This document shows, in pieces, positions 6,303-54,095 of a stretch of 64,000 nt of DNA. Every line of letters starts with the position of its first letter. The first letter of the stretch is position 1. The notes under the pieces were generated by a model, which was given only the letters and a program-made list of their open reading frames with translations, ran no database searches and had not been told where the DNA came from. This DNA is from an uncultured Anaerolineales bacterium (GTDB taxonomy: Bacteria > Chloroflexota > Anaerolineae > UBA1429). The position numbers and the translations under genes were made by a program. Where the stretch lies: the NCBI GenBank assembly GCA_964407215.1, contig CAYOUT010000006.1:87437-151436 (forward strand), read 5' to 3'.

Positions 6303-6428
6303 CCCGCGCCGCGGGATGAGGCCTGTGTGAGGCGGTTCGATGCGGGGGCGCACAGCCACAGCGCCGCAGGCGCCCGCCCCCGCGTACCATGGCTCGCGTG
6401 TGAGGCTGTGTACCGCGCGCTTGCCCGC

Positions 6429-7172: not shown

Positions 7173-7322
7173 ACGGCTTCCTTTCGCACGCGGGCAGCTG
7201 TTGGTACATGCTGCGGTGAACCGGCTCACCAGACGCATCGGATTGTAGACGATGCCGCTGGGCGACGCAAGCCCCAGCGGGCCATCCGGCAGGTGGCGGG
7301 CCATCCAGCAGGTGGCGGGCCG

Positions 7323-9470: not shown

Positions 9471-9659
9471 GGCGCCCTCCGTGTGCGGCAGTTGTGGTGG
9501 CGGGTCAGGTGTGTGGCTGCATTCTAGCGGGCGCGCGGGCGGCGTCAAGGGCGGGAGGGGGCTTGGGGCCGGGGCGCGGGCCCTTGGGGTTGCGCTGCCG
9601 CGGCGCTGGCGGTAACATACCGCGGCTGAGCCCAGCTGATCTCACGCAAGGAGGCTACT

Positions 9660-10511: not shown

Positions 10512-10567
10512 GCCCGCAGCGTGTGGCGGGCGGGGTACGGGCCGCGCCCATGCCCCGCCCGTGTGCG

Positions 10568-11392: not shown

Positions 11393-11450
11393 GGTTGCTC
11401 CTCTTATGGAATGAGATGGACGGATACGTGCTGGCGCGCGCGGCCCGCGC

Positions 11451-11972
11451 TTACCAGCGGTTGACGTGAACTCGCTCGGCGTCGTACTGTGTGCGGGGCG
11501 GTTTGTCCTCGGCCGGGCGGCCGATGGCGATGTAGGCAAAGGGCACGATCTCTGGCGGGATGCCCAGGATCTCGCGCGCCGAGCGCACGCGCTCCTCCAC
11601 GGGGTGCACCCCACACCACACGGCGCCCAACCCCAAGCCGGTGGCGGCCAGCAGGATGTTCTGGGTGGCGGCCGACAGGTCTTGCACCCAGAACTCTGCG
11701 CTATCCGGGTGGGCCAGCGCGAGTACGCCGCAGGGCACGATGCACAGCGGGGCGCCGGGCAACATCTTGCCGTGGGGGTGCGGCTCGGCCAGCCTGGCGA
11801 GCAGGGCGGGGTCGGTCACCACCACGAACTGCCACGGTTTGCGGTTGCCCGCGGAGGGCGCCGCCATGGCCGCCTGCAGCAGCGTGTCGAGCTGCGCCCG
11901 AGACACCGGCTCGTCGGTGTACTTGCGGATGCTGCGCCGGGCAAAGAGGTTGTCTATCGCAAGGTGTGGCAT
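11451..11972 (-). CDS. nitroreductase family protein
   Basis: Start MPHLAIDNLFARRSIRKY with an AAAGGAG SD. NADH/flavin nitroreductase pattern (RRSIRKY…, …PSAGNRKPWQFVVV…). Confidence 0.8.
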   Translation of the reverse strand: MPHLAIDNLFARRSIRKYTDEPVSRAQLDTLLQAAMAAPSAGNRKPWQFVVVTDPALLARLAEPHPHGKMLPGAPLCIVPCGVLALAHPDSAEFWVQDLSAATQNILLAATGLGLGAVWCGVHPVEERVRSAREILGIPPEIVPFAYIAIGRPAEDKPPRTQYDAERVHVNRW

Positions 11973-12065
11973 ACGGTGCTCCTTTCGTGCGCCATGCTCG
12001 CCCGCTATCCGATGCGGGCTTGGCGCGCCCATCGAGCCGCAGTATAGGCGGCGGCCCCGGGCGCG

Positions 12066-12698
12066 TCAACGCGCTGCGTTACCCCGGCCCTCTTGCGATA
12101 TCTCTTCGTAGGCCTCGCGCAGCCAGGGGTGCACCATTACCAGAGCCTCGCGGTGCTCCCAGATATAGTTCAGCAGGAGCCGGATGGCGTCGTCCAGCGA
12201 GCGGTTGAGCTCTCTCATCACCTCGCGCAGGTAGGGCGGCTCGCCCGAGAGGTCCCATTCGGTCTTGTCCGCCAGAAAGAGCGCCTTGTCGAGCATGGTG
12301 GCGCCCGGCCGCAGGGTGGTGTGGCAGCCGATAGCGGCCAGCACTCCCTCGTCCCGCTCGCCGAACAGCTCGCGCGCGACGACGGCCGAGAGCTTTTGAT
12401 GCAGCAGCACCGGCGCGGCCTCCTCCTCGGGCAAGACGTCCAGCCCCAGAGCCCGCGCTGCCGCCACTCGCTCGTCGTTGGGGATGGGGGCGCTCACGTC
12501 GTGGAGCCACGCCGCCCGGCCCGCGCGGTCGGGGTCGAGCCCCGCCCGCAGCGCGATGCGGCGCGCCTGGGCCGCCACCGCTGCGCTGTGGTCGGCGGTG
12601 GCTCGCTTCCCGTGCATCCGCAGGAACGCGGGCACATCCCGCTCGGGGCTGCCCGTCGGCTGCGTCCCCCGCGCCAGTTGTGCGAGCAGTGGGTGCAT
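12066..12698 (-). CDS. HD-domain phosphohydrolase (YqeK-like)
   Basis: Start MHPLLAQLA with a GAGGGGG SD. HD motif …HSAAVAAQARRIA…AAWLHDV…; about 210 aa, typical of YqeK/HD hydrolases. Confidence 0.65.
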   Translation of the reverse strand: MHPLLAQLARGTQPTGSPERDVPAFLRMHGKRATADHSAAVAAQARRIALRAGLDPDRAGRAAWLHDVSAPIPNDERVAAARALGLDVLPEEEAAPVLLHQKLSAVVARELFGERDEGVLAAIGCHTTLRPGATMLDKALFLADKTEWDLSGEPPYLREVMRELNRSLDDAIRLLLNYIWEHREALVMVHPWLREAYEEISQEGRGNAAR

Positions 12699-12875
12699 AC
12701 GATCCCCCTCGGGCGCGCCCGAGCCCCCGTGCCCGCCTCTGCCCCGCTGCAACCAGTTCGATAGCCGCGACACCCGTACCTCCTTCTCCGAGGTGTGGCC
12801 GCCCCGCCTCTCGCCACCGCCGCACACTCTGGCCCCACCGCACAATATACCGCGAGGGGCCGCCATCCGCCGCGG

Positions 12876-15368
12876 CTAGATCCGCGCCACCATATCGGTC
12901 AAGCTGAACACGCGCACCTCGCCCGGGTCGCCCGAGCAGGTGATGGTGACGGGCACGCCGGGCTCGAGTACGAAATAGTTGTCGCTCAGGTCCACATCGT
13001 TGGCCGGCTCTACCACCACGCCAAAGGCCGGCACGTCGCTGCGCAGCGTGATGCGGTCGCCCTCCACCGTCAGATCGGCGCGGGCCGGCGTCAGGTTCAG
13101 CCCGCGGTACCGGCCGAACAGCAGATAGTTGCGATAGACGGCGCCGCCCGCCTCGAGCTCGACGAACAAGACGGTGTCCAACAACTCGCCGTTGACCTCG
13201 TGCACCCGCGACTCTGCCACCTCGCCCGTGGATTCGTCCACCGGCACCACCCGCGGCACGTAGCCGATCCCCAGCTCCTCCAGGCTGAACACGCGCGCCC
13301 GGACGACGTCGTTAGCGGGGAGCTCGACATCGAAGCGCTGCTCTGCCACTTTGTCGCCCGAGAGGCGGTAGGCGGCGACGCGCGCCGAGCCCTGCACGGT
13401 GTGAAGGAGGTCGTTCACCACGGTGAGGGCCACCCGGCCGCCATCCATGTGCAGCGAGGGGAGCACCGCGTCAAAGAAGCGGCGCGACGCGTACCACAGC
13501 CCCTTCTTGCGGCGGGCGTAATCCAGGCAGGACCAGCTCGCCACCGGCCAGCAGTCGTTGAACTGCCAGTAGAGCGCGCCGGAGGTGCGGAACTTGCGCC
13601 GCCGCCAGTGCTCCACGCCCGTCTTGATGGCGTCGGCCTGGTTGAGCTGCGAGAGGTAGACAAAGCTCTGCAGGTCGGCCGGCAGGCCCATGCGCCCCAC
13701 CATGAAGCGCAAGAGCTTTTCCATCCCCTCGTTCATCTTTTGGTGGGCCAGCATCACGGGGCTCAGGATGGAGAGATCTTGGGGCCCGGCATAAGAGTGC
13801 ACCGTCTTCCAGTTGGGCATGGCCTGGAAGCCGAACTCGCTGATGAACCGGCCCGTGTCGGCCAGGTAGCCCTGGTGGTCGGCCCAGCGGCTCCACACCG
13901 TCCACGAGTGGCGATCGCCCTCCGACATGCCGTTGGGGTCCTCGCCGCCGTAGGGGCTCGAAACCCAGTAGGGGCGCGAGGGGTCGTTCTCCAGCACCAC
14001 CTCGGGGAGGATCTCGCGGTAGATGGTATTGCCGAGGTACTTGGGCGTGCCGTTGTCCCACCAATCGACAAAGCCCCAGTTGTTCTCGTTGTTGCCGCAC
14101 CACAGCACGATAGAGGGGTGGTTGCGCAGAGCCCGCACCACCGTGTCGGCCTCGTCGCGCGCCAGATCCTGGAACCACTCCAACTCGTCGGGGTATTGGG
14201 CGCAGGCGTACATAAAGTCCTGCCACACCATGATCCCCATCTCGTCGCAGGCCTCGTAAAAGGCCGGGTCCTCGTAGATGCCGCCGCCCCAGATGCGCAG
14301 CATGTTCATGTTGGCGTCGCGCGCCAGGCCTATCAGCGCATAGTAATCCTGCGCCGTCAGCCGCGGCAACAGGCTGTCGGCTGGGATCCAGTTGGCGCCT
14401 TTGCAAAAGACGCGCTCGCCGTTGATATCAAAGATAAAGCTGCGCCCCTCGGCGTCGGCCTCTTGGATCACCCGCACGGTGCGAATCCCCGAGCGGAAGC
14501 GCAACTCGTCGAGCGCCTGTTCGCCGCACAGCAGGCGGATGGTGACATCGTAGAGCGGCTGGCCGCCCATGCCGTTGGGCCACCACAGCTGGGGCTGGGT
14601 GATGCGCAGCTGTGTGGCGACGCTGGGGATCCCCTTGCGTACGGCCACGGGCACGCGCTGGCGGGCCACCTCGGCGCCGCCCAGCGCCACGATGACCTCG
14701 GCCTCCAGCGGGTCGGGCACGTAGGCCTCCACCGAGGCGGAGACGCGCACCAGGGCGCCGTCGGCATCCACCGTTTCGGTGTAAAAGAAGGGGTCGTACA
14801 GCTTGCCGGCGTCGATGCGCTCCAGATAAACGGGGCGCCACAGGCCCACCTGGGTGATGCGCGGGCCCCAATCCCACCCGTAAGAGTACTGCGCCTTGCG
14901 CACATAGACGCGGGCCGTCTCGAACACCGATTCCAGCTGGAAGGGGCTGTTGGCCTCGATGCGCTTTGCCGTGGTGATGGGCGAGTCGAAATGCACCTCC
15001 ACGGTGTTCTCGCCCTCCAAGACGAGGTCCGACACGTCGAACCGGTAGGGGATGAACATATTCTCGGCGCGGCCGACGAACTCGCCGTTCAGGTAGACGT
15101 CGGCCAGTGTGTCTATCCCCTCGAACACCAGGTCGAGGCCGGGGGCCTCCAGCGTCTCGGCATCGAGCGAAAAGGTTTTGCGGTAGACCCATTCCTTGGG
15201 CTCGAGGCGATGCATCTCGATCTCGTTCATGCCCACAAAGGGGTCGGGCACCTCGCCCAGCGCGAGGAGGTCGAGCTGCACGCAGCCCGGCACGTTGCCG
15301 TGCTTCCAACCCTCCGCGCCCAACTCTCGGAACTCCCACGCGCCGTCCAGAGATATCCTCTCGTTCAT
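12876..15368 (-). CDS. glycoside hydrolase family 2, beta-mannosidase-like
   Basis: 830 aa. N-terminal sugar-binding domain, GH2 TIM barrel (…WCGNNENNW…, …FISEFGFQAMP…) and C-terminal beta-sandwich domains characteristic of beta-mannosidases and exo-glucosaminidases. Confidence 0.9.
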   Translation of the reverse strand: MNERISLDGAWEFRELGAEGWKHGNVPGCVQLDLLALGEVPDPFVGMNEIEMHRLEPKEWVYRKTFSLDAETLEAPGLDLVFEGIDTLADVYLNGEFVGRAENMFIPYRFDVSDLVLEGENTVEVHFDSPITTAKRIEANSPFQLESVFETARVYVRKAQYSYGWDWGPRITQVGLWRPVYLERIDAGKLYDPFFYTETVDADGALVRVSASVEAYVPDPLEAEVIVALGGAEVARQRVPVAVRKGIPSVATQLRITQPQLWWPNGMGGQPLYDVTIRLLCGEQALDELRFRSGIRTVRVIQEADAEGRSFIFDINGERVFCKGANWIPADSLLPRLTAQDYYALIGLARDANMNMLRIWGGGIYEDPAFYEACDEMGIMVWQDFMYACAQYPDELEWFQDLARDEADTVVRALRNHPSIVLWCGNNENNWGFVDWWDNGTPKYLGNTIYREILPEVVLENDPSRPYWVSSPYGGEDPNGMSEGDRHSWTVWSRWADHQGYLADTGRFISEFGFQAMPNWKTVHSYAGPQDLSILSPVMLAHQKMNEGMEKLLRFMVGRMGLPADLQSFVYLSQLNQADAIKTGVEHWRRRKFRTSGALYWQFNDCWPVASWSCLDYARRKKGLWYASRRFFDAVLPSLHMDGGRVALTVVNDLLHTVQGSARVAAYRLSGDKVAEQRFDVELPANDVVRARVFSLEELGIGYVPRVVPVDESTGEVAESRVHEVNGELLDTVLFVELEAGGAVYRNYLLFGRYRGLNLTPARADLTVEGDRITLRSDVPAFGVVVEPANDVDLSDNYFVLEPGVPVTITCSGDPGEVRVFSLTDMVARI

Positions 15369-22484: not shown

Positions 22485-23045
22485 ATGAGCCACCGCCTGG
22501 AGATCGTAGCGGCCGACATCACGGGGTTGCGCGTGGACGCCATCGTCAACGCGGCCAACCGCACGCTGCTGGGCGGCGGAGGCGTGGACGGCGCCATCCA
22601 TCGCGCAGCGGGCCCCGGCCTGCTGGCCGAGTGCCGCACCCTGGGCGGCTGTGAGACGGGCCAAGCGGTGATCACCGGCGGCTATCAGCTGCCGGCTCGC
22701 TATGTGATCCACACCGTGGGGCCCGTGTGGCGGGGCGGCGGGCACGGCGAGGCCGAGTTGCTGGCCGCGTGCTACCGCAACAGCTTGGCGTTGGCCGTGC
22801 AGCACGGCGTGCGCACCATCGCCTTCCCCGCCATCAGCACGGGGGTGTACGGCTACCCGGCGGAGCGCGCCGCCCGCATCGCTGTGGGGGCTGTGCGCGC
22901 GTTCCTCGCGGGCGACGATTCGCTCCGCAAGGTGATGCTGGTTTGCTACAACCCTGAGGCCTGCCGCGCCCTGCAACGGGTGCTGGGCGAGGCGCACCCA
23001 CCACCCACCGACGCACCATCCATCGGAGAAGCGACGGACAACTGA
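22485..23045 (+). CDS. macro-domain protein (O-acetyl-ADP-ribose deacetylase / ADP-ribose-binding, YmdB-like)
   Basis: …[27 protein letters not shown]…[13 protein letters not shown]…, the canonical macro-domain motifs. GAGGAG SD. The stop overlaps the next ATG (TGATG). Confidence 0.85.
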
Positions 23046-25096
23046 TGCGTAACCGACGATACGGCCCGATCATCACCGGCGCAGTGGGTTTGTTGGCACT
23101 GGCTCTGCTGGGCGCGCTTGTGCTGCGCCAGCCCTTTTGCGCATCGCTGCCCTCGCTCGATGGGGCGCCCTGGTGCCAGCACCCCCCTGAGCGGGCGTCG
23201 GCCGAGCCCGACGCCGACTCCTGGCCGCGCTACGCCGATGCTGGCCTGGGCATCTCGTGGAGCTGCCCGCCCGGCTGGACGGCCTTTGCCCTGGCCGACG
23301 AGGCCCCGCGCCTGATCGTCTTTATGCCGCCCGATACGTGGGACGCACCCGGCATGCTCTTGTTCCTCAGCGCCTCCACGGATCCGGCCGATGTGCTGCG
23401 TTGGGACCCCAAGGCCGCCAACACGCACGTCGCGGGGCAGCTCGCCCTGCTGGAGCGCTTCCCCGGCGGCCAGAACCCGCCCATGCGGCGCGTCTCTTTT
23501 CGTGCCGACGACCGGCTCGTCAGCTTGGCGCTCTCTTATGGCGACGGCGTCGATAGCACCGTTTTCGAGCGGATTGTGGCCACCGTGTCTCCCACCGCGG
23601 AGCTGGGCGCCCACACCACTTTTGAGACGCTGGCCGATCTTTCCGCCGCCTGGGACCCCTGCTCGCCCGGCTGCAACATCAAGAGCTATGACCCCAGCTG
23701 GTGCAACCTGCTGGTGAGTGGCGCGGATTGGGGCGGTGTGCCGGTCTACTCGAACGGCACCTCGGTGAACAACATCTGTACCGACACCTACGGGCTCAAA
23801 TTCCAGTGCGTGGAGCTCGTCCAACGCTACTACTGGGAAAAGGTGGGGCACGATACGGGCACCGGCTCGCCGCGCTGGGGGATCGCCAGCGCCTACCAAG
23901 CGTGGAACACCCACCCGGCCAGCCTGGTGCCGTGCGCCAACGGCGGCGGCTCGACGCCGCAACACGGCGACATCCTGATCTGGAAGGGCGAGGGGGTTTA
24001 TTATCCGCACGGGCACGTGGCCGTGGTGTCGCACATCGAGGGTGGCCGCGTGTACTATGTGCAGCAGAACGTGTCGAGCGTCGGCGGCTGGGGCTCGCGA
24101 GAGTGGAAGGACGGCCGCATCCAGGATACGTACATCATCGGCTGGCTGCACCACCAGAGGGGCGACACCACGCCCCCCACGGGCGGCCTCACCAGCCCTC
24201 CAGAGGGCGTGTTGGTGCGGCAGAACAGGGTGTACATCGAGGGCTGGGCCAGCGACGCCGAGAGCGGCGTCAAAGAGGTGCGCCTCATGGCCCACTATGC
24301 GGGGGCGTGGCACCAGGTGGGCTCGCCCTGGAGCTCGACGACCTATGCGTTGGATTGGGACATGGCCGCGGCCGGCGTGCCGGACGGGCGCGTGCAGTTG
24401 GCGGTGGACATCCAGGATAACGCCGGCAACTGGGCCCGTTCGCCGGGCGGCCTGCGCACTTTTGTCAAGCTGACGCGCCCCACGCCCTACAAGGCGTATC
24501 TGCCCGTTTGCGCACAGGCCGGCAAGTGGGAGCTGCGCTGCCAAGAGCTGCTGCGCAACGGCGGCTACGAGGGGGGCGACGGTTGGGTGTTCGGCAGCAC
24601 GCCGCGCCCGGCGGCGTACACCACAAAGACTGTGCGCTCGGGCGGGCGGGCGCTGCGGGCGGGGATAGAGCCCGGCACGGCGAACGTCGAATCCTACTCC
24701 TCGGCGTACCAGGCCTTTCGCGTGCCCCGCGAGGCCGCCAGCGCCACGCTGCGCTTCTGGTGGTGGCGGCGCACGGAGGAAGCGCCGTTGGCCCAAGCCC
24801 AAGCCCTCTCGCTCGAGGCCGCCGCGCTGCCCGTGCTGGTGGACGGCTGGCCCGCGCTGCAGGTGGTGGCGCCCGATACGCAGCAGGCCCTGCTGCTGGA
24901 CGCCGACACTCGGGTCATCGTGGCCCGAATATCGGTCGACCGCGTCAACGACGGCGGCTGGGTGCAGCAGACCTACGACCTCATGCCGTACCGAGACCGC
25001 AACCTGCTGCTGTACCTGAACGCGTACAACGACGGGGCGGGCGGGCGCACCTGGATGTATGTGGACGATGTGAGCATCAGCTACTGTTTGCCATAA
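23045..25096 (+). CDS. membrane-anchored CHAP-domain protein (putative peptidoglycan amidase/peptidase) with C-terminal beta-sandwich domains
   Basis: N-terminal TM/signal (ITGAVGLLALALLGALVL). CHAP motifs (…CVELVQRYYW…Cys…, …HGDILIWKG…GHVAVV…His). Translationally coupled to the macro-domain gene. Confidence 0.7.
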   Translation: MRNRRYGPIITGAVGLLALALLGALVLRQPFCASLPSLDGAPWCQHPPERASAEPDADSWPRYADAGLGISWSCPPGWTAFALADEAPRLIVFMPPDTWDAPGMLLFLSASTDPADVLRWDPKAANTHVAGQLALLERFPGGQNPPMRRVSFRADDRLVSLALSYGDGVDSTVFERIVATVSPTAELGAHTTFETLADLSAAWDPCSPGCNIKSYDPSWCNLLVSGADWGGVPVYSNGTSVNNICTDTYGLKFQCVELVQRYYWEKVGHDTGTGSPRWGIASAYQAWNTHPASLVPCANGGGSTPQHGDILIWKGEGVYYPHGHVAVVSHIEGGRVYYVQQNVSSVGGWGSREWKDGRIQDTYIIGWLHHQRGDTTPPTGGLTSPPEGVLVRQNRVYIEGWASDAESGVKEVRLMAHYAGAWHQVGSPWSSTTYALDWDMAAAGVPDGRVQLAVDIQDNAGNWARSPGGLRTFVKLTRPTPYKAYLPVCAQAGKWELRCQELLRNGGYEGGDGWVFGSTPRPAAYTTKTVRSGGRALRAGIEPGTANVESYSSAYQAFRVPREAASATLRFWWWRRTEEAPLAQAQALSLEAAALPVLVDGWPALQVVAPDTQQALLLDADTRVIVARISVDRVNDGGWVQQTYDLMPYRDRNLLLYLNAYNDGAGGRTWMYVDDVSISYCLP

Positions 25097-25192: not shown

Positions 25193-25756
25193 ATGCGCAT
25201 GTTGAAACGTGTGCCCGTCCGCCGCCTCGCGCTGCCTTGGCTCTATCTGCTCTCGGCGGGGTACGTCTCCACCATGTGGCTCATAGACACCCGCCCGTAT
25301 ATCAACCTCAACGGCTACGAGCGCGCCCGCTTTGTAGACATGGTCTACGGCCGCACCTACAAGCCGTTCGTGTTGCGCGCCCTGCTGCCGCTGGTGATCC
25401 GCGGGCTGCGCGCGCTCATCCCCAACCACATCAACTACCCCATGCACGGGGTGATCTATGCCCGGTTCCCCGCACTCTACCGCGTTATGCTCTACCTGGG
25501 CTGGGAGCTGGAGTACCTCACCGAGTACGCGCTGGCGGCGCTGCTGCTGTACGCCTCGCTGCTCGGCACGATCTTGGCGCTGCGGGCCGTCTTGGCGCAT
25601 CTCGGTGGGCAGCTGCTCATCGGCGGCGCCGTGCTGGGCGCGCTCACCGCGGCCTTTCGTTGCCGGGCGCCGGCCGGCTGGGCGCCCTCTCGCAGGCTCG
25701 ACATGCTCGCGCGGGCTCGCTATCATGGCTCGCGAACCGCAACCCATTCTTTGTGA
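25193..25756 (+). CDS. hypothetical membrane protein
   Basis: GGGAGGTG SD and ATG. Aromatic-rich hydrophobic segments (…ALPWLYLLSAGYVSTMWLI…, …LLLYASLLGTILAL…). The two alternative frames over this region are R/A/P-rich junk, including the N-terminal extension of track ORF 25237..27489. Confidence 0.5.
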   Translation: MRMLKRVPVRRLALPWLYLLSAGYVSTMWLIDTRPYINLNGYERARFVDMVYGRTYKPFVLRALLPLVIRGLRALIPNHINYPMHGVIYARFPALYRVMLYLGWELEYLTEYALAALLLYASLLGTILALRAVLAHLGGQLLIGGAVLGALTAAFRCRAPAGWAPSRRLDMLARARYHGSRTATHSL

Positions 25757-25764
25757 GGTGCATC

Positions 25765-27489
25765 ATGAGAGAGATCCTCTGGCGAGATGGCAAGTTCGTG
25801 CGGCGGGACGGCTCAACGTTCGTGCCCTACGGCGGCGTGTTCGCCGAGGCGATCTTTGCCGATCGCTGCGGTATCACCATCCGCCCCGAGTGTCGCCGCC
25901 CCTGGGGCGCATCGAACCTGTTGCGCTTTGACGACGCCAACGACGACGAGCTGCTCAAATGGTTGCGCTATCTCAAGGCCGAGGGGATGAACTACATGCG
26001 CTACTTTTGCGCCTCCGCCCGGCGCATGGCCGGCGAGCCGCTGGACATCGGCGGCAAGCTCAACCCCAGCATCTGGCCCAAGCTGCTGCACTATATGGAC
26101 CTCGCCGCCCAGGAGGGGGTCTATTTCCACTTTGTGCTCTTTCCCGAGCCGCGCACCACGATCTATATGCAGCAGCGGCACCTGGAGGAGAACGCCCTGC
26201 AGTACTATACGCCCGACGAGATCGCCGCGCTGCCCGCCCATCGGCGGCGCTTTCTCGACCCCGCCCAGCCCCGCGTGGGCTATGACACCTACTTTGCCGA
26301 CGCCGACGTGTTGGCCTGCCATATAGACCTCCTGCGCGCCATGGCGCCCGATCTTGTAGACCACCCCGCGCTGCTGTGCGTAGAGCTCTACAACGAGCAG
26401 CAATGGGACAACGACCAGTTCCAGAAGGGGCGCTGCTTCCTGTGGGAGGTGCACGACCAGGAGGTGGCCTGGAGCGCCGAGCTGGTGCGCGCCGTCCACC
26501 GGGAGCTGCCCGGCGTGCCGGTGTGCTGCTCCTTCGCCGGCCTGGGCCTCGCGGCGCAAGACCCGCTCCTCTGGATCGATCGCATCCCCATGGACTTTTT
26601 CAGCCCGCACCTGTACCAGGGGCTGGCGGGGGTGCCGCTCAAGCTCGATTTCGCTGGCATCTCGGATGTGGCACTGAAATACTCGCAGCCCGAGCTGCCC
26701 ACCATGATCGGCGAGTTCGACCCCAGCGATTTCAAAGAGGGCGTGGGCAACGAGCGCCTCGTCGTGCGCGACGTGGCCTGGTTCTCGGTGTTGAACAACT
26801 GCCCCGGGTTCGGTATGTGGACCTCCCGCGGCTACGCCGAGTTCGACATCCCCCGCCGGGTGATGGAGAGCATCGATTTCGCCCACTTTCAGCCGAAAGC
26901 GCCGGCTGTGATGGTGAACATTGCGCCGCAGGTGGAGTATTTCCACAGCTTGGAGCACGGCGCCGGCCCCGATTGCCTGCTGCCCGCCGATTACTGGTGC
27001 CCCCACCGCCCCGAGGACCACGACCACATCTACTGCAAGAAATTCGCCAGCCGCGAGCTGGACGACCTCCACAACTGGGCGCACTTTGCGCTGGAGAACG
27101 GCGTCAACTATGCCTTTACGCGGCACCCCGAGCGCTACGAGCGCGTGTGGAACATCCGCGATTTCGGCGCCGACAGCCTGGCGCGCATGCCGCGGCCGTT
27201 CGTCCCGGCCGAGGGGGTGCAGCTCAAATACATGTCGTCCGCCGACGACCGCACCCACGTGGTGTACCTGCGCCAGTTCACCTACTATCGCGTAAAGGAG
27301 CACGCCGGCCGCATCAAGCGCGAGCCGGTGGAGGTGCGCGTGACGGTGGACCTGCCCGGCGGCGATTACGACGTGGAGGTGTGGAACCTGGACACGCGCC
27401 AGCGCACCGAGCGCACCTGCGGCGCCCGCGACGAGATCGCTCTGGGCACCACGGCGGACGATTTCGCCCTGGTGCTCCGCGCGAGGTAG
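25765..27489 (+). CDS. clan GH-A (GH5-like) glycoside hydrolase
   Basis: Start MREILWRDGKF with a GTGAGGTG SD. Acid/base …LLCVELYNEQ… and nucleophile …TMIGEFDPSD… motifs in the spacing expected for (beta/alpha)8 clan GH-A enzymes. Confidence 0.7.
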   Translation: MREILWRDGKFVRRDGSTFVPYGGVFAEAIFADRCGITIRPECRRPWGASNLLRFDDANDDELLKWLRYLKAEGMNYMRYFCASARRMAGEPLDIGGKLNPSIWPKLLHYMDLAAQEGVYFHFVLFPEPRTTIYMQQRHLEENALQYYTPDEIAALPAHRRRFLDPAQPRVGYDTYFADADVLACHIDLLRAMAPDLVDHPALLCVELYNEQQWDNDQFQKGRCFLWEVHDQEVAWSAELVRAVHRELPGVPVCCSFAGLGLAAQDPLLWIDRIPMDFFSPHLYQGLAGVPLKLDFAGISDVALKYSQPELPTMIGEFDPSDFKEGVGNERLVVRDVAWFSVLNNCPGFGMWTSRGYAEFDIPRRVMESIDFAHFQPKAPAVMVNIAPQVEYFHSLEHGAGPDCLLPADYWCPHRPEDHDHIYCKKFASRELDDLHNWAHFALENGVNYAFTRHPERYERVWNIRDFGADSLARMPRPFVPAEGVQLKYMSSADDRTHVVYLRQFTYYRVKEHAGRIKREPVEVRVTVDLPGGDYDVEVWNLDTRQRTERTCGARDEIALGTTADDFALVLRAR

Positions 27490-29723: not shown

Positions 29724-30860
29724 CTACGGATCGGGGCGTAACGTGCCGGGGCGCGCCGACACGAACGTCAGCCGATACTCTGTGCCGGTGACGGCCCGCA
29801 GCGCGTCGCACACGTCGCGATAGAGGCGCTTGTCGAGCCAATCCACCGCGATGGGCGAGCGCACGGCCACCGTCAGGCTGCGCTCGTCGTGGCCGACGGG
29901 CACCGACCCCGCCAGCCAAACGTCCACCCGCTCGGCGCCCAAGCGCTGGCGCAGCTCGGCCAGCGTGTCGAGCCAGGGCTCCACCATCACCCAGTGCGGG
30001 TGGGCGCCGGGGGCCGAGCGACACTCGATGCCGAGGTCGTCGTCGTCCAGCGCGTCGGCCTCGCCGCCCCAACCCGCTTCGTCGTCGGCGCCCGCCTCGT
30101 CCCCCACGGGGCCGTGCCCCTCCGGCGGCGCGTGCTCCGCGCCGGGCGGGCGGGGGGCGGGCAGGCACGTCTCGGGCCGGCTCAGCACCGAGGCCAGCAC
30201 GCCGGCCGGTGCGCGCACCCGCCGGTTGCCCCGCAAATGGGCCCACCAGGCCGATACGACCTCGGGCGTCACCCAGGGCTGCAGCGCCAGCCTGTGGGCG
30301 ATCCCCGGAAAGACCCCCGCCTCCAGCAGCAGGCTAAAAGCAGTAGAGTGATTATCCCCATCAGTAGGAACTACAAGCTTCTTCTCTAGTAGACCCCTGC
30401 CGTCCGCTGCGGCGGCGGGCGCACCTGCGGCGGTGGGTGTGTCCGCAGCGGGCGCACCCTCGCCGTCGGTTGCGGGGGTGGGCGAGGGGCCGGCGTCGGC
30501 GGGGGGCGAGGCGGCGCTCGGCGGCGGATCGCACGGGGGGGCGCCGTCGGCTGCGGGGGTCGGCTCCTGCGCGGGCGGGAGGCCCAGGAGCACCAGCACC
30601 AGCTTGCGCCCCTCGCGGCCGGGCAGGTTGGCCACCAGCTCGCGGCGACGCAGCTCGCGCAGGTGGGCGTCTATGGCGCGCAGGCTCACGCCGCGCAACG
30701 CCGCCAGCTCGCGCCGGCTGACGGGGGGCGTGCGGCGGCCGGGCTGGCCCCAGGCCAGCGACAGGATCAACTCGTAGGTGCGATGGAGGTGGTCGGGCAG
30801 GGACCGATCACCCAACACCCGCCAGGGCAGCACGATGTAGCAGCTGGGAGAGAAGCTCAA
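29724..30860 (-). CDS. HTH (winged-helix) DNA-binding protein with Pro/Ala-rich linker and C-terminal DnaA-N-terminal-like domain; TTG start
   Basis: The ORF track frame runs 29724..30914. A consensus promoter and AAGGAGG lie inside its first 18 codons, with TTG 6 nt after the SD (…AAGGAGGtcccgtTTG), so the start is placed at 30860. N-terminal …SRRELAALRGVSLRAIDAHLRELRRRELV…. C-terminus …WLDTLAELRQRLGAERVDVWLAGSVPVGHDERSLTVAVRSPIAVDWLDKRLYRDVCDALRAVTGTEYRLTFVS matches the DnaA_N pattern (W..L..L….F..W…L.V.PN.F..DW…Y…). Confidence 0.65.
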   Translation of the reverse strand: MSFSPSCYIVLPWRVLGDRSLPDHLHRTYELILSLAWGQPGRRTPPVSRRELAALRGVSLRAIDAHLRELRRRELVANLPGREGRKLVLVLLGLPPAQEPTPAADGAPPCDPPPSAASPPADAGPSPTPATDGEGAPAADTPTAAGAPAAAADGRGLLEKKLVVPTDGDNHSTAFSLLLEAGVFPGIAHRLALQPWVTPEVVSAWWAHLRGNRRVRAPAGVLASVLSRPETCLPAPRPPGAEHAPPEGHGPVGDEAGADDEAGWGGEADALDDDDLGIECRSAPGAHPHWVMVEPWLDTLAELRQRLGAERVDVWLAGSVPVGHDERSLTVAVRSPIAVDWLDKRLYRDVCDALRAVTGTEYRLTFVSARPGTLRPDP

Positions 30861-30878
30861 ACGGGACCTCCTTGAGGG

Positions 30879-30906
30879 CTGTACTAGAACGTATGTTCTA
30901 GTACAG
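30879..30906. promoter_or_regulatory. perfect inverted repeat CTGTACTAGAAC-GTAT-GTTCTAGTACAG (candidate operator)
   Basis: 12-bp arms with a 4-bp spacer. It abuts or overlaps the -10 and TSS of the HTH gene promoter and sits directly 5' of its SD, a classic autoregulatory operator position. Confidence 0.55.
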
Positions 30907-30933
30907 CATACCACATCGGAGCGCGTCGGTCAA
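30905..30933 (-). promoter_or_regulatory. putative sigma70-type promoter (TTGACC-N17-TATGCT) of the HTH/DnaA-N-like gene
   Basis: Minus-strand reading: ccgTTGACCgacgcgctccgatgtggTATGCTgtactagaac…, with the -10 immediately followed by the palindrome. Confidence 0.45.
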
Positions 30934-31018
30934 CGGGCGCTGCGGCGTGCAGGGGTGCTGCCCGCGGCGGAATCCGGCGCGCTGCGTAAATTCCGCAAAA
31001 ACTCTGAGCGAATTGGGG

Positions 31019-31047
31019 TTGACGTAGGGCGCGACTCTTGGTATGCT
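31019..31047 (+). promoter_or_regulatory. putative sigma70-type promoter (TTGACG-N17-TATGCT) of the large surface-protein gene; about 213-nt 5' UTR
   Basis: ggggTTGACGtagggcgcgactcttggTATGCTacc with an A-rich upstream tract. The ATG at 31267 has a GAAGGAGG SD. Confidence 0.45.
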
Positions 31048-31266
31048 ACCCACATGAGCTTGCTTTAAGCGCGCACCGCAGTGTTTGCGGCCGCCCACGG
31101 CCCTTTGGCCCCCCGTAAGCTCTGTGATGCTATCGGGTGTGTTCCGTTGGAGTACGGCGGCAGCACACCGCCTCAGCTCGGGATCCCCGCTCTTCCGCGG
31201 CGGCGAACCATAGACCCGTTACCGGAATGTGCACCGCGCAACAATTCGATCGTGAAGGAGGCTACC

Positions 31267-34200
31267 ATGTCCAAACACCGTAGGGCCGCAGAGTTCACCG
31301 GGCACGGGGCGCGCTGGCTGCGCCTGCTGCTGGCCGTCGCCCTGCTGTTGTCGTTCTCTGCCGCGGGGGCGCCGAGGCCCGTCCAGGCCGATCCGGCGAG
31401 CGATCCGGGCGCGGGCGGCGCGTCGATGAGCCCGCTGGCGGATGAGGTATGCACCACCGTCCATCTGGTGGCCGTGGCCGACACGTATATGAATGGCGCA
31501 CAGAATAGCCAGACCCGGAATTACGGCAACGAGACGACGGTGAGGCAAACTGTACCTCGCAGTCAGGTTGCCTCCGAGGGGGGCCTCTACAAGTGGAACC
31601 TCTCCAGCATCCCCGCCGGCGCCAGAGTGGATTCGGCCAGTTTAACGTTCCGCGTCACCGCCGGGTCTAGCCGGGTGTTCAACCTGTACCGCGTGCGCAA
31701 GAATTGGACCGAGGGCGGGGCGACTTGGCGCACTTATAATGGAACCACCTCTTGGAGCTCCAACGGCGCCGCCGGTACCACAGGCTTCACGCCAGACCGC
31801 GACAGCACGAGCATGTGGACGGTGCAAGCCAGTGCCTTTAACGCGACCGGCGTGCAGGAGTTCACCCTGAACGCAACCGGCCGCGGCGTTCTGGAGGACT
31901 GGATCAACAACTCCAGCACCAACTACGGGGTGACGATTCAGAACTACACGTCGGTTACGGGCACGCAGTCGAGCAATTGGACAGTGCAGTCCAGAACCGG
32001 CTCGGGTGGTGGCCCCGGTGTCCCCTCCACTCCCCCCACGCTGAACGTGACCTACTGCGTTCCGGCGGAGTACGGCGTGACGCTGACGCCCGCCGCCGCT
32101 GCGCAGTCGGGCGACTCGGGCGATACGGTGACCTACACGCTGACGGTGCGCAACACCGGCGACGTCGAGGACACGTTCACCCTGGCCCTTGGCGACAGTG
32201 ATTGGGATGCGACGCTGTCGATATCGCCCCCGAGCGTGACGCTGGCTGCGAACGCGACCGCCGTTGTGCAGGTGAGCGTCGACATCCCGGCGAACGCACT
32301 GGCGGGGGCTGAAGACGAGGTGGCGGTGACGGCCACGTCACAGGGCGACACCACAAAATCGGCCAGCGCCACCCTCACAACGAGCGCAAACACGGTGTAC
32401 GGCGTGACGCTGACGGCCGACACCAATACGCAGACGGACAACATAGGCACGACGGTGGCCTACACCCTGACGGTGACCAACACCGGCAACGACGAGGACA
32501 CGTTCGACCTGGCCCTGGGCGGCGGTACGTGGACGACGACGCTGTCGGCCGCGAGCCTGACGTTGGATGCGGGCGATAGCGACACGGTGACGGTGGAGGT
32601 AGAGATCCCCGACGACGCTTGGGGCGGAACTAGCGACGCGGTGACGGTGACGGCCACGTCACAGAGCGACGGCACAAAGTCGGCCAACGTCACCCTCACG
32701 ACCGTCGTCTCCCAGTACGCCGTGATGCTGACGCCCGACTTTCATACGCTGACGGGCGACCCGGGCGGCGCGGCGGCGGTCTACAATCTGACGGTGACCA
32801 ACAACGGCAACGTCGCGGACACGTTCGAACTGGAGCTCGGCACCAGCGCGTGGGGTGCGACGCTGTCGGACGACGAAATAACGCTGGATGCGGGCGCGAG
32901 CGCCACAGTGCAGGTGAGCGTCGCTGTTCCCGCGGGTGTGGCGGGCGGCGCCACCGACTCTGTGGAAGTGACGGCCAGGTCACAGGGCAGCAGCGGGAGG
33001 GAAACGACCAGTGTCACCCTCACGACGCGCGCCAGGAAGGTGTACGGCGTGACGCTGGAGGCCGTCGAGGGCGTCGTCGAGCTGTCGGACAACCCGGGCG
33101 AGACGGTGACCTATATGCTGACGGTGACCAACACCGGCAACACCGCGGACACTTTCAAGGTCGCTGTCAGCGGGAACGTGTGGACAGTGTCGACGGCCAC
33201 AACGGTGGGGCTGGACGCCGGTGAGAGCCTCTTGCACACGGTGAAGGTGACCATCCCGGCGGGCGCGCTGGCGGGCGCCAGCGACGCCGTGACGGTAACG
33301 GTCACGTCAGACAACGATGATGACGCAACGGACAGCGTCACCCTCACCACGAGCGCCAACACGGTGTACGGCGTGGAGGTGGCGGCCGACAACAACAACC
33401 TGACGGGCGACGCGGGCGATACGATGACCTACACGCTGACGGTGACCAACACCGGCAACGCTGAGGACACGTTCACCCTGGGCTCCGAAGACGATAGGTG
33501 GCCGACGTGGGTGTCGCCCCTGAGCGTGACGTTGGATGTGGGCGCGAGTGCAGAGGTGACGGTGGAGGTAAAGATCCCCGACGACGCGCTGGGCGGCGAC
33601 AAAGACACCGTGACGGTGACGGCCATGTCACCGAGCAGTGTATCCGACAGCGTGGACCTGACCACTCGCGTCAGGACGGCGCGCGAGGTCGAGTTGACGG
33701 CCGCCGCCGCTGCGCAGTCGGGCGACCCGGGCGTGACGGTGGTCTACAATCTGACGGTGACCAACGCCGGCAACATCGTGGACACGTTCGACCTGGACCT
33801 CAGCGTCTCTACATGGACGACGTGGTGGATGATGACGCCCGCCCAAGTGACGGTGGGACCGGGTGCGACCGCCGCGGTGACGGTGAGCGTCACCATCCCG
33901 GCGGACGCGCTGGCGGGCGCCAGTGGCGCTGCGACGGTGACGGCCACGTCGCGGAGCGACGCAACGGTATCGGACAGCATCACCCTCACGACGAGCGCCA
34001 ACGCGGTGTACGGCGTGCAGGTGGAGGCCGCCGACGTCGCTCTCTCGGACTATGCGGGCGAGACCGTGTCCTATGTGGTGACGGTGACCAACCTCGGCAA
34101 CGCTGAGGACACGTTCGACCTGGATCTCAGCGGCGCCACGTGGACGACGGATCAGTCGCGCACGAGCATGGTGTTGGCGGCGGGCGCGAGCGACACGGTG

Positions 34201-34368
34201 ACGGTGGAGGTAGAGATCCCCGGCGACGCTCGGGGCGACGACAGCGATACCGTGACGCTGACGGCCACGTCACAGGGCGACGACAACATCTCCGCCGGCG
34301 TGGAACTGACCACCACGACAGAGTATTTCTGGCTCTATCTCTATATTCCGTCCGTTAGCAGGCGGTAA
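31267..34368 (+). CDS. large secreted surface protein: signal peptide + DNRLRE-like domain + 7 tandem DUF11/CARDB-like repeat domains
   Basis: Start MSKHRRAAEF…LLLAVALLLSFSAAGAPRPVQA (signal peptide) with a GAAGGAGG SD. N-terminal domain (…LSSIPAGARVDSASLTFRV…YRVRKNWTEGGATW…) resembles DNRLRE domains. Then seven ~108-aa repeats, each with a TYTLTVTNTGN..DTF.L…W..TLS…VTL.AG.S..V.V.V.IP..A..G..D.VTVTATSQ core (nt ~32071-34330). The upstream part of the track ORF (from 31081) is not used. Confidence 0.85.
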   Translation: MSKHRRAAEFTGHGARWLRLLLAVALLLSFSAAGAPRPVQADPASDPGAGGASMSPLADEVCTTVHLVAVADTYMNGAQNSQTRNYGNETTVRQTVPRSQVASEGGLYKWNLSSIPAGARVDSASLTFRVTAGSSRVFNLYRVRKNWTEGGATWRTYNGTTSWSSNGAAGTTGFTPDRDSTSMWTVQASAFNATGVQEFTLNATGRGVLEDWINNSSTNYGVTIQNYTSVTGTQSSNWTVQSRTGSGGGPGVPSTPPTLNVTYCVPAEYGVTLTPAAAAQSGDSGDTVTYTLTVRNTGDVEDTFTLALGDSDWDATLSISPPSVTLAANATAVVQVSVDIPANALAGAEDEVAVTATSQGDTTKSASATLTTSANTVYGVTLTADTNTQTDNIGTTVAYTLTVTNTGNDEDTFDLALGGGTWTTTLSAASLTLDAGDSDTVTVEVEIPDDAWGGTSDAVTVTATSQSDGTKSANVTLTTVVSQYAVMLTPDFHTLTGDPGGAAAVYNLTVTNNGNVADTFELELGTSAWGATLSDDEITLDAGASATVQVSVAVPAGVAGGATDSVEVTARSQGSSGRETTSVTLTTRARKVYGVTLEAVEGVVELSDNPGETVTYMLTVTNTGNTADTFKVAVSGNVWTVSTATTVGLDAGESLLHTVKVTIPAGALAGASDAVTVTVTSDNDDDATDSVTLTTSANTVYGVEVAADNNNLTGDAGDTMTYTLTVTNTGNAEDTFTLGSEDDRWPTWVSPLSVTLDVGASAEVTVEVKIPDDALGGDKDTVTVTAMSPSSVSDSVDLTTRVRTAREVELTAAAAAQSGDPGVTVVYNLTVTNAGNIVDTFDLDLSVSTWTTWWMMTPAQVTVGPGATAAVTVSVTIPADALAGASGAATVTATSRSDATVSDSITLTTSANAVYGVQVEAADVALSDYAGETVSYVVTVTNLGNAEDTFDLDLSGATWTTDQSRTSMVLAAGASDTVTVEVEIPGDARGDDSDTVTLTATSQGDDNISAGVELTTTTEYFWLYLYIPSVSRR

Positions 34369-34396
34369 ACGCGCCGCAGGACGGTAGGCAGCACGA

Positions 34397-34427
34397 GGGG
34401 ACGGGCATCGCCCGTCCCCTTTTTTTC
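34397..34427 (+). terminator. rho-independent terminator of the surface-protein gene
   Basis: GGGGACGGGC-atcg-GCCCGTCCCC followed by TTTTTTT. Confidence 0.65.
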
Positions 34428-34484
34428 GTCTCGTTGGGCGGCCTGTGCGCCCCCGTGCGTCGCATACGGGGGGCCGCGCCGCCC

Positions 34485-38386: not shown

Positions 38387-40057
38387 CTAGACTTCGGGCT
38401 GGCAATCCCACTGGGTGAGGTCCCAGTTGCCGTCCTCACTGTACTGGATGGCGTCCTCGCGTATGTCCTCGGGCGCCGCGTCGTGGGTGACGGCGGTCAT
38501 GTTGGCCATGGTCTGTTCCAGCGTCTGCTCGCCTATGAAGTACAGGTCGTTCTCGCGGTAGAGGAAGTCGCGGTACTTGCCCCCCATGCCGAACAGCCAG
38601 GTGATAGGGGGTATCGGCAGGCCGCCGCCGGGCAGGCGCGACTCGCCCACGAACAGATTGGCGATCTCGGGCAGGGCGCGCGCCTTCTTGACGGACGGGA
38701 TGAACGAAGGCACCTCGTTGACGACGAGCTCGTCGTGTTCGGGCGTGGTGAGGAACATGAGCCAGTCCACGCACTCGTCCACGTTGCCGCGCTGGAGGCA
38801 CATGCGGTTCAGGCCGAAAGCGATGGAGCCGTAGCCGCCGACGCCGACGGGCAGCAGCGGGGGATCCTTGGCGAACTCGGAGGTCTCTTGGGTGACGGGA
38901 GGCAGCCAGAACGACGAGAACTCAAAGTCGCGCCGGTCGTCGTCGCGCAGCGGGCCGTACTGCCAGGTGCCCTCCCACAGCATGGCCACTTGACCGGTGG
39001 CGAACGCCTGGTAGGCGGCGGCGCCGTCTCTCAGCGTCCAGTCCGTCGGGAAGTACTGCGCCCACTCCTTCTGGATGCGGTACATATCCTGGACCTCGGG
39101 CTGCTCGAACAGGAACCAGTCGTAGCACCAATACTGGTGGGCCGTCTCCTCCAGGCTGACATAGCCCTCCTGCTTCCACAGGGGCACCGTCTCGTGGTAG
39201 TTGAGCGTGTCCATAAAGTCGAGCCAGTTCCAGCAGAGCTCGTTCCCCAGGACGCGCCAGATCCAGTCGTGGCCCGTGCTGCTGGGGCTAAAGGGCACGA
39301 CGCCCGCGTCCTGCAGCATCTGGTGCCACTCCATGAAGGTGACCCAATCGGGGGGTGAACCCAGCTCGGGGTCGATGCCCGCCTCCAGGTCGATGCCCGC
39401 TTTCTCAAAGAGGTCTACGTTGACATAGACGCCGGTAGAAACCAGGTCCATCGGCACGCCGCCATAGTTCCCCTTGGAGCTAAAGCTCTCGATGAAGGGA
39501 TCGAGAAAGTGCTCCTTCCAAGGGGCGGGATCGTCCGGGATGTACTTGTTGGGCATCTCCAGGTAGTCGTTGAGGGGTACGCACTTGCCCTCATCGACGA
39601 AATCGTGCAGGCTGCTCAGCCACAGCCAGAAGACGTCCGGCCCCGTGCCGCCGATGAGCTGCGTCTGCAGCCAATCCACATAGTCGCCGGTGGGGGCGCC
39701 GATGAACTTCATGGTGACGCCGGGGTGGAGATCGTTCCACTCCTCCGCCAGGTCGTCCAGCGCGCGGCGCTTGGGGGCGTTGGGGTCGGGGTTGGTGTCG
39801 GCGGAGAGGGGCGTGTAAACCTGAGCATAGTGCTCGATGACGCCCTGGAAGCCCACGGGCTTGGCCTCCTCGGTCGGCTCCTCGACGGGCTCTGTCGGTT
39901 CGGCCTCTGCCTCGGGCGGCGCCTCACCCTCGGTCTCTGTCGGGGCCGTTGGGGCGGGGGGCTGGGCCGGTTGGCAGGCCGCTGCGATAGTGGCTAACGC
40001 TGCAACGCCGGAGAAACGCAAAAAGTCACGTCGCTTGAGTCGCAAGTCGTCTCGCAT
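38387..40057 (-). CDS. extracellular solute-binding protein (family 1, sugar ABC transporter) with Tat/lipoprotein signal
   Basis: MRDDLRLKRRDFLRFSGVAALATIAAAC (twin-arginine motif plus lipobox), Glu/Pro-rich linker, then an SBP family 1 fold. AAGGAG SD. No adjacent permease genes (orphan SBP). Confidence 0.85.
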   Translation of the reverse strand: MRDDLRLKRRDFLRFSGVAALATIAAACQPAQPPAPTAPTETEGEAPPEAEAEPTEPVEEPTEEAKPVGFQGVIEHYAQVYTPLSADTNPDPNAPKRRALDDLAEEWNDLHPGVTMKFIGAPTGDYVDWLQTQLIGGTGPDVFWLWLSSLHDFVDEGKCVPLNDYLEMPNKYIPDDPAPWKEHFLDPFIESFSSKGNYGGVPMDLVSTGVYVNVDLFEKAGIDLEAGIDPELGSPPDWVTFMEWHQMLQDAGVVPFSPSSTGHDWIWRVLGNELCWNWLDFMDTLNYHETVPLWKQEGYVSLEETAHQYWCYDWFLFEQPEVQDMYRIQKEWAQYFPTDWTLRDGAAAYQAFATGQVAMLWEGTWQYGPLRDDDRRDFEFSSFWLPPVTQETSEFAKDPPLLPVGVGGYGSIAFGLNRMCLQRGNVDECVDWLMFLTTPEHDELVVNEVPSFIPSVKKARALPEIANLFVGESRLPGGGLPIPPITWLFGMGGKYRDFLYRENDLYFIGEQTLEQTMANMTAVTHDAAPEDIREDAIQYSEDGNWDLTQWDCQPEV

Positions 40058-53688: not shown

Positions 53689-53717
53689 TTGACATCCCAG
53701 TACAGATGTGGTAATAT
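53689..53717 (+). promoter_or_regulatory. consensus sigma70 promoter (TTGACA-N17-TAATAT) with A-tract UP-like element
   Basis: aaaaagggTTGACAtcccagtacagatgtggTAATATcatagttg. TSS predicted at ~53722-53725. Confidence 0.6.
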
Positions 53718-53722
53718 CATAG

Positions 53723-54074
53723 TTGCAGAGCCTCGAGAGATTAGAGTCACTTTAACTACCTTAGGGCAGGCGAACGATCAGCGGCGACCATGACGCGAGT
53801 TGTGGCGGCACCGTAAGCTGGACGAAAGGGAACCCGTCAAACAGGCTCCCGAGGATGCCAGCGAGCGAGTACACCGAGAGATCGGAGGAAAGCGAGTCGG
53901 AAGCGAGCCCAGCATGGGTGTTGGGCCAGTAGCACAGCTCGAGACCCAGGTGGGGGGTAGTTGAAGCGGATGAAGGTCACTTGAGGCTCTGCGTTTTCGA
54001 GGTTCTGCGAGTTGTAGGGTTCCGTGTGGGAAGCCGTGCCGGGTGAGTGTTTGCCCGGCACGGCTTCGTTTTGC
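53723..54074 (+). ncRNA. candidate ~350-nt non-coding RNA of unknown family (promoter to intrinsic terminator, no ORF)
   Basis: Bounded by the consensus promoter and a 14-bp GC-rich terminator. No plus-strand ORF of 60 aa or more, and stop codons are frequent in all three frames. Lower GC than flanks at the 5' end. Not recognisable by eye as RNase P, tmRNA, SRP or 6S. Confidence 0.45.
54030..54074 (+). terminator. rho-independent terminator (14-bp perfect stem GAAGCCGUGCCGGG…CCCGGCACGGCUUC + GUUUUG)
   Basis: gaagccgtgccggg-tgagtgtttg-cccggcacggcttc gttttg. Confidence 0.65.
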
Positions 54075-54095
54075 CCCCCAGAGGGTGCGGCGTCG

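Follow-up and report, generated by a model that had tools for sequence, protein, structure and literature searches.

What holds a large secreted repeat protein at the surface of an uncultured Anaerolineales bacterium, and what would such a protein do there? The question is raised by a gene at positions 31267–34368 (stop codon included) on the forward strand of a 64,000-nucleotide stretch of contig CAYOUT010000006.1, the whole of which was analyzed and is called the window below (G+C content about 67%). An earlier note, written from the bare sequence, had taken the product for an abundant, S-layer-like surface protein with an unclear mode of anchoring. Our analysis leads to another reading, to which we give a probability of roughly one half: a Sec-exported, surface-displayed glycan-binding protein built from a head that resembles carbohydrate-binding module family 96 (CBM96), a stalk of immunoglobulin (Ig)-like domains and a C-terminal tail that appears to be a divergent YLP-box.

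Gene and Protein Product

The frame 31081–34368 (+) is the sole long open reading frame (ORF) of the region with a high G+C content at third codon positions (GC3). Within this frame GC3 amounts to 0.68 at 31081–31266 and to 0.86–0.87 from the ATG at 31267 onwards. Because GC3 rises at this point and an AAGGAGG sequence (31255–31261) lies 5 nt upstream, we take this ATG as the real start; the in-frame GTG at 31081 was ruled out as a start codon by GC3 and by the position of the ribosome-binding site. Translation from 31267 gives the 1033-residue product that had been claimed. Inspection of its first 41 residues (31267–31389) likewise bears out the proposed signal peptide, which is of the Sec type and consists of a basic n-region, the hydrophobic core LRLLLAVALLLSFSAAG and a predicted cleavage site between VQA and DP. 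Export by the twin-arginine (Tat) route was ruled out on inspection, the arginine pair being located 10 residues before the hydrophobic core and the RRxFLK motif being absent. The mature protein has a mass of about 101.5 kDa and an isoelectric point (pI) of 4.05, contains 17.5% Thr together with much Ala, Val, Ser, Gly and Asp, and has two Cys only. This acidic, Thr/Ala/Val/Ser-rich and Cys-poor composition is compatible with an envelope protein. The earlier description of a secreted modular protein is confirmed, and its association with the cell surface is probable.

The N-terminal Domain

Residues 56–268 (31432–32070) make up the predicted β-sandwich head. The NCBIfam model NF033679 (DNRLRE) aligns over its full 164 positions with residues 71–262, scoring 46.3 bits against a cut-off of 34 (E = 4.6e-12), and places the DNRLRE-like domain where it had been claimed. 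The name of this domain originates in PMC2447325, and archaeal disaggregatases and S-layer proteins were the first in which it was noticed, at that time without a known function (PMC9971899). When the model of the head (pLDDT, predicted local distance difference test, 69.8) was compared with the PDB using Foldseek, just three matches were obtained at E ≤ 1e-3, namely both chains of 8wab, a chondroitin-sulfate-binding carbohydrate-binding module (E = 2.4e-6, template modeling (TM) scores 0.60/0.72), and 7vbo (E = 3.7e-5, TM 0.54/0.63). The latter is the alginate-binding module TM6-N4, the founder of CBM96, whose authors give an identity of about 30% between CBM96 and members of the DNRLRE domain (PMC9971899). 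From these matches we infer a polysaccharide-binding module.

The only two cysteines of the protein, Cys62 and Cys264 (31450–31452 and 32056–32058), stand at both ends of the DNRLRE domain and are invariant in 7/7 aligned domain copies; a disulfide bond between them probably clamps the termini of the head. The closest copies are found in P0050, a multidomain metallophosphoesterase protein, with 42% identity of the target head to each of its three tandem domains. An exhaustive HMMER scan with the N-terminal domain yielded 2761 representative proteins at E ≤ 1e-3, mostly very large ones with several copies of the domain, and a word-indexed search with this domain alone returned no relatives. Among the 148 best relatives none carries the Ig repeat type of the target, and a YLP-like tail is present in 4 only. 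It can be added that N-x-S/T sequons are concentrated in this part of the protein, with 11 in the head (residues 88–262, 31528–32055) vs. 6 in the 750-residue repeat region.

The Ig-like Repeats

The head is followed by seven tandem repeats of 104–109 residues, namely residues 269–377 (32071–32397), 378–483 (32398–32715), 484–592 (32716–33042), 593–700 (33043–33366), 701–806 (33367–33684), 807–914 (33685–34008) and 915–1018 (34009–34320), all encoded on the forward strand. The copies are 38–60% identical in amino acid sequence and have in common the cores YxLTVTNxGNxxDTF and VTVTATSQ, in agreement with the seven domains of about 108 residues with shared cores that had been described. They had been assigned to DUF11, which proved correct in part only. 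Among the NCBIfam models they score best with choice_anch_T (choice-of-anchor T, NF041740), which reaches 209.1 bits against a cut-off of 70 over seven stretches. The Pfam families FixG_C (170.5 bits), Ig_VWA7 (116.6 bits) and NPCBM_assoc (NEW3; 95.0 bits) pass their gathering scores, and HYDIN/VesB-like Ig domains are also among the best Pfam matches. Pfam DUF11 (PF01345) stays with 16.1 bits below its gathering score of 24.6. The DUF11-type repeat model TIGR01451 does pass, with 54.1 bits against a cut-off of 24 over five stretches, its best stretch covering profile positions 9–26 of 53 only, that is, the TVTNTGN motif. The repeats thus look like sibling Ig-like domains of DUF11, and "seven times DUF11" is close yet imprecise.

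Structure prediction of a single repeat had been suggested as a check. The AlphaFold2 model of repeat 2, calculated from a 40-sequence alignment, is a nine-strand β-sandwich with a pLDDT of 98.1. Its Foldseek matches in the PDB are just generic Ig, PapD, ASH, MSP and FixG-related domains and the Ig linkers of sialidases and peptidases, with TM scores of 0.6–0.74 (0.71/0.69 for the FixG-related structure 2r39), and none of them is an S-layer structure. The repeat is thus predicted to be a non-catalytic sandwich of the Ig/PapD/FixG_C-like type. A sequence search of the PDB gave no match.

At the DNA level the repeats are 60–73% identical when threaded by codon and 60–78% in ungapped repeat families. 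Tandem Repeats Finder detected no array of a period close to 320 nt, and the longest stretches of exact identity shared by two copies mostly measure 14–26 nt, with at least 30 nt in one pair. This pattern reads as an old, diverged duplication, unlike the near-identical DNA that drives copy-number switching, and the proposal of recombination-prone repeats with copy-number phase variation is not sustained, the repeat DNA being 60–78% identical only. A different situation is encountered in homologs from Poribacteria (P0004–P0007, P0010, P0011 and others), which combine an N-terminal domain carrying a CxxCH motif and a C-terminal dockerin with 8–12 almost identical protein copies of the same Ig repeat. 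Those repeats, unlike the ones of the target, could be of the kind that varies in copy number.

The C-terminal Tail

Directly after the last repeat (...LTTTTEYFWLYLYIPSVSRR) the protein ends with the 15 residues EYFWLYLYIPSVSRR (34321–34365, +), which terminate in LYLYIPSVSRR. They contain neither an LPXTG or PEP motif nor a transmembrane helix or basic cluster, and none of the NCBIfam sorting-signal models matched the full protein, including NF050076 and NF053834, discussed below. The observation that TTTEYFWLYLYIPSVSRR resembles neither LPXTG nor PEP-CTERM signals was thus accurate, there being no such motif and no segment of helix length. Comparison with homologs nevertheless suggests what the tail may be. 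Among the listed homologs, 54 of the 119 other than the target have the pattern [YFW][LIMFV]P in the final 14 residues. After the proline there usually come two hydrophobic residues, a variable one and then R or K, as in RIYLPVVAR, LFLPLILR and IYLPVILKP. Such tails are matched by two NCBIfam models, NF050076 (sort_motif_YLP) and NF053834 (ultrashort_CTERM), both annotated as "YLP-box putative sorting motif": at E ≤ 0.1 at least one of them recognizes 8 of the 9 homolog tails tested, and 7 reach the curated cut-off.

A position-specific scoring matrix (PSSM) was built from 52 distinct homolog tails. With this matrix LYLYIPSVSR scores 15.5 bits, to be compared with a range of 14.1–31.3 for the training tails and a mean of −12.5 for the controls. 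Of 3419 control ORF C-termini just one reaches this score, EALYLPVVAR, which itself looks like a genuine YLP-box from an Anaerolineales-type locus. The motif pattern occurs a single time in the six frames of the window, at the C-terminus of the target. The target thus presents the sequence aromatic-[LI]-P-hydrophobic with an R/K end, no more than about 10 residues from the C-terminus of a protein with a signal peptide, and homolog tails with I in place of L or with S after P do exist (LYIPLIFR, VFIPVVSR, VYFPSLSK). We conclude that the ultrashort tail, with its motif YIPSVSR, is probably a divergent YLP-box. What had been described as an unclear anchoring mode can accordingly be restated: the tail appears to be a divergent copy of a putative sorting motif already modeled by NCBIfam.

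In some homologs the YLP-box is internal, being located right after the last Ig repeat at about 121 residues (P0003, P0008, P0021) or about 300 residues (P0002, P0018) from the C-terminus. The domain that follows it may be pre-peptidase C-terminal domain-like where it measures about 120 residues and a propeller where it measures about 300. The motif may therefore mark a site of processing or attachment for which strict C-terminal placement is not needed.

Homologs and Genomic Setting

The exact protein (P0001) is a singleton from a single 225,880-bp contig at NCBI, a contig look-up by exact product gave no entry, and no relative of it was found in the GTDB representative genomes. The homologs bearing a YLP tail share a C-terminal cassette, formed by the Ig repeats and the tail, and vary in their N-terminal parts, for which Pfam identifies peptidases of families S8, M36, M28 and M14, a GH9 cellulase with a carbohydrate-binding module, β-helix and NosD domains, and Kelch propellers. 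Since the heads vary over a shared cassette, the latter behaves as a generic spacer-and-retention module for exoproteins, and the version present in the target carries a CBM96-like head. In the Poribacteria relatives a dockerin takes the place of the tail, and a few others end in a transmembrane helix with a basic cluster. Such swapping of C-terminal anchors among relatives is the very behavior that the name "choice-of-anchor" implies. The neighborhoods of two YLP-tail homologs contain no conserved partner that would be a candidate sorting enzyme.

Around the target lie genes of metabolism and of two-component systems, glycoside hydrolase genes and the gene of a sugar-binding protein; none for secretion or sorting is adjacent to it. 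The neighboring pyruvate dehydrogenase E1 β subunit (PDH-E1-beta) is 84–87% identical to its counterparts in metagenome-assembled genomes (MAGs) of Anaerolineales and Caldilineales and 78–81% identical to those of Chthonomonadaceae. Taken with the tail, which is typical of Chloroflexota, these identities indicate an uncultured Chloroflexota lineage close to Anaerolineales and Caldilineales. Litorilinea aerophila was ruled out as the source of the window, since its representative genome should have given a match of about 100% in the PDH-E1-beta scan and its proteome table has DNRLRE proteins of 118.7 and 171.7 kDa vs. about 106 kDa for the target. A cluster of glycan-degradation genes (for a β-helix/GH141-like protein, a GHL6 protein with a GH42 trimerization domain, and a GH2 mannosidase-like protein) and the gene for the binding protein of a sugar ABC transporter are found at 4191–15368 and 38387–40057; together they indicate a saccharolytic lifestyle. 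A few kb upstream of the target, a 683-residue protein with a CHAP domain, of the cell-wall amidase or peptidase type (23045–25096, +), is followed by a 750-residue protein without a Pfam match (25237–27489, +). Both may be envelope-related.

Expression Signals

A promoter-like site TTGACG-17-TATGCT at 31019–31047 (+) matches the consensus at 9 of 12 positions and has in addition the TG of an extended −10 element (TGGTATGCT, 31039–31047). A divergent twin, TTGACC-17-TATGCT with the same TGGTATGCT, was found by pattern search at 30905–30933 on the reverse strand and faces the upstream gene. The extended pattern occurs 3 times in the window where 0.04 occurrences are expected, and two of the three form this divergent pair in the intergenic region upstream of the target gene; the pair is therefore probably made of real promoters. 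The UP-like A tract that had been proposed does exist as five adenines at 30997–31001 (+), or about −57 to −53 relative to the predicted start of transcription, and constitutes a weak feature. As for the long 5′ untranslated region, a leader of about 213 nt (31054–31266) is predicted from the position of the promoter. Its segment 31081–31266 is considered non-coding because the in-frame GC3 is only 0.68. Neither the leader nor the window as a whole matches an Rfam family, and the predicted fold of the leader is no more stable than those of shuffled controls (z = −0.44), so that we discarded the ideas of a riboswitch and of a stabilizing leader structure.

The AAGGAGG mentioned above (31255–31261) is the Shine-Dalgarno sequence, and the gene is closed by an intrinsic terminator at 34395–34430 (+), the hairpin of which (34395–34421; 12-bp G+C-rich stem, 3-nt loop, −27.1 kcal/mol, z = −5.25) precedes a U-run. 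The earlier assessment of promoter, ribosome-binding site and terminator as strong is therefore shared here. Because the downstream gene converges, the transcription unit is taken to be monocistronic. GC3 of the neighboring genes ranges from 0.87 to 0.94, and neither codon usage nor GC3 of the target gene is more biased than theirs. These signals fit good expression, and the gene is probably well expressed; abundance at the level of an S-layer protein is not implied by them.

The upstream gene (29724–30860, −) has a probable TTG start at 30860, preceded by AAGGAGG. Its product combines a winged-helix-like N-terminus with a middle part of low complexity and a C-terminus with sub-threshold similarity to DnaA_N (21.5 bits, threshold 24.6). 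This protein could be a regulator, its gene having the control region 30860–31047 in common with the target gene. The third occurrence of the extended promoter pattern, TTGACA...TGGTAATAT at 53689–53717 (+), falls into a 400-nt gap (53696–54095) flanked by two genes of the minus strand. The plus strand offers no convincing ORF there, and Rfam gives no match. An unannotated small RNA, or else an antisense transcript, might be expressed from this site.

Proposed Function and Alternatives

Taken together, these features suggest the following scheme. Removal of the signal peptide would leave a mature protein of three parts, produced from a monocistronic unit that extends from the strong extended −10 promoter to the strong terminator. 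The DNRLRE/CBM96-like head would bind a polysaccharide, probably an acidic one, the seven rigid Ig-like domains would serve as a spacer stalk, and the YLP-box-like tail would retain or sort the protein at the envelope. The head would then project away from the cell and contribute to adhesion, to the capture of polysaccharides, or to binding of a matrix. The richness of the window in glycoside hydrolase and sugar-uptake genes was counted in favor of this scheme.

Several results weigh against this scheme. On the side of the head, no Pfam family matches residues 42–269 at E ≤ 10, CBM96 (PF24517) included; the model of the domain, derived from a 7-sequence alignment, is of moderate confidence, and its ligand cannot be inferred from the matches. 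An S-layer-type design would be served equally well by a head with affinity for an envelope polymer of the cell itself. On the side of the tail, its length is too short for a membrane span, it has I and S where the YLP-box consensus has L and L, and neither YLP-box model matches the last 24 residues of the target even at E ≤ 10. In the literature we found no paper naming the YLP-box, no experiment on it and no processing enzyme. Finally, no ortholog was found in the other sampled genomes, where the next best match is 43% identical and restricted to the repeats, and the 80 loci recovered with a PDH-E1-beta scan contain a homolog of neither the target nor its upstream gene, so that synteny offers no comparison.

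The S-layer or sheath reading supposes a very abundant, lattice-forming protein, in which the CBM-like head would anchor the protein to a secondary cell-wall polysaccharide and the Ig domains would form the lattice contacts. In its favor are the signals of a monocistronic gene (promoter, ribosome-binding site and terminator, all strong, and a predicted leader of great length), the acidic, Thr/Ala/Val/Ser-rich and Cys-poor mature protein, and the archaeal S-layer proteins among the first known carriers of the DNRLRE domain (PMC9971899). The filamentous Litorilinea aerophila (Caldilineae) bears a lattice-like protein layer of unknown composition (PMC13319060), and the protein has a sub-threshold similarity to NF033506, "putative S-layer protein". 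That similarity, however, amounts to 89.4 bits against a cut-off of 110 and concerns the level of a single Ig domain only. Pfam detects no S-layer homology (SLH) or other known S-layer anchor domain, the Foldseek matches of the repeat include no S-layer structure, the neighboring genes are at least as biased in codon usage and GC3, the leader is without conserved or unusually stable structure, and no ortholog was found in any other sampled genome. Moreover, the homologs attach the same cassette of Ig repeats and tail to exoenzymes, which points to a stalk for display and away from a lattice. We regard an S-layer role as unlikely, although it deserves consideration.

Free release, as a soluble lectin or a matrix cross-linker in the medium or in a biofilm, would assign no sorting role to the C-terminus, its hydrophobic residues being then no more than a linker or the close of the last domain. 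The failure of the tail with both YLP-box models, its insufficient length as a membrane anchor and the lack of an experimentally shown YLP-box function in the literature speak for it, but measured against the homolog motif the score of the tail is far above chance, its position after the last ...LTTT strand is the same, and secreted multidomain proteins show a strong enrichment of this motif at their C-termini; we consider such a release rather improbable. A filamentous appendage, with Ig chains bundled as in the trimeric GhlA and the CBM-like domain at the tip, would have a precedent in the related taxonomic neighborhood, since a trimeric filament of a Caldilineae member is made of tandem Ig/DUF11-type domains (PMC13319060). 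The target has seven domains vs. 49 in GhlA, belongs to a different Ig subfamily, with Pfam DUF11 below threshold, and carries a classical signal peptide, which GhlA lacks, so that we give very little credit to this possibility. The display of a glycan-binding head on an Ig stalk remains the reading that we prefer.

A more far-reaching idea would join these elements: the target, or the class of proteins with DNRLRE head, Ig array and YLP-type tail to which it belongs, might form the lattice-like protein layer of Anaerolineae and Caldilineae filaments through an uncharacterized sorting pathway recognizing an ultrashort Y-[LI]-P tail without a transmembrane segment. This is a long shot. If true, it would represent a new mode of envelope anchoring in Chloroflexota, whose cell envelopes are poorly understood; the lattice-like outer layer of the filamentous Caldilineae member has no protein assigned to it (PMC13319060). 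The YLP-box tail ends a large share of the sampled secreted multidomain proteins from this group, and the target, being simple and probably well expressed, would be a handy substrate for following the cleavage or retention of the tail and for finding the cognate enzyme and the ligand of the head.

Comparison with Known Systems

S-layer proteins made of Ig-like arrays share with the target the acidic, Thr-rich and Cys-poor composition, the tandem β-sandwiches, and the strong expression signals with a long leader; the target differs from them by the absence of a known anchoring domain, of an S-layer hidden Markov model (HMM) match above cut-off, and of a structural match. GhlA, the protein of the trimeric grappling-hook-like filament of L. 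aerophila with its 49 DUF11 domains (PMC13319060), is likewise a Chloroflexota surface protein in which Ig-like domains follow each other in tandem like beads on a string, whereas the target, known from its sequence alone, has a CBM-like head, a signal peptide, seven domains and another Ig subfamily. With respect to TM6-N4 (7vbo) and 8wab, the likeness resides in the NF033679 match above cut-off and in the β-sandwich of the moderate-confidence head model, for which these structures give the only superpositions at E ≤ 1e-3. The head is 14–15% identical to them, has no attached lyase or hydrolase, and carries the invariant pair of terminal cysteines.

The choice-of-anchor T/YLP-box proteins of Chloroflexota (P0013, P0060, P0075) have the same Ig repeat family (38–50% identity over the repeats), a Y-[LI]-P-x-[VI]-x-[RK] tail straight after the last repeat, and a secreted multidomain build. 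The target is set apart from them by its DNRLRE head, in place of a peptidase, GH9 cellulase, β-helix or propeller, and by its divergent tail YIPSVSRR, which fails both HMMs. A parallel in the way of working is offered by the stalk adhesins of Gram-positive bacteria, in which a ligand-binding head is carried by tandem Ig-like spacers and a C-terminal LPXTG sorting signal ends the protein. Distal head, repetitive Ig stalk and C-terminal sorting element would correspond to each other in the two systems, whereas the target has no LPXTG motif, transmembrane segment or sortase-type signal, and the domain families are unrelated. The target protein thus stands outside the class of Gram-positive stalk adhesins, and its gene is an ordinary combination of catalogued modules, in a class of proteins that has been poorly studied.

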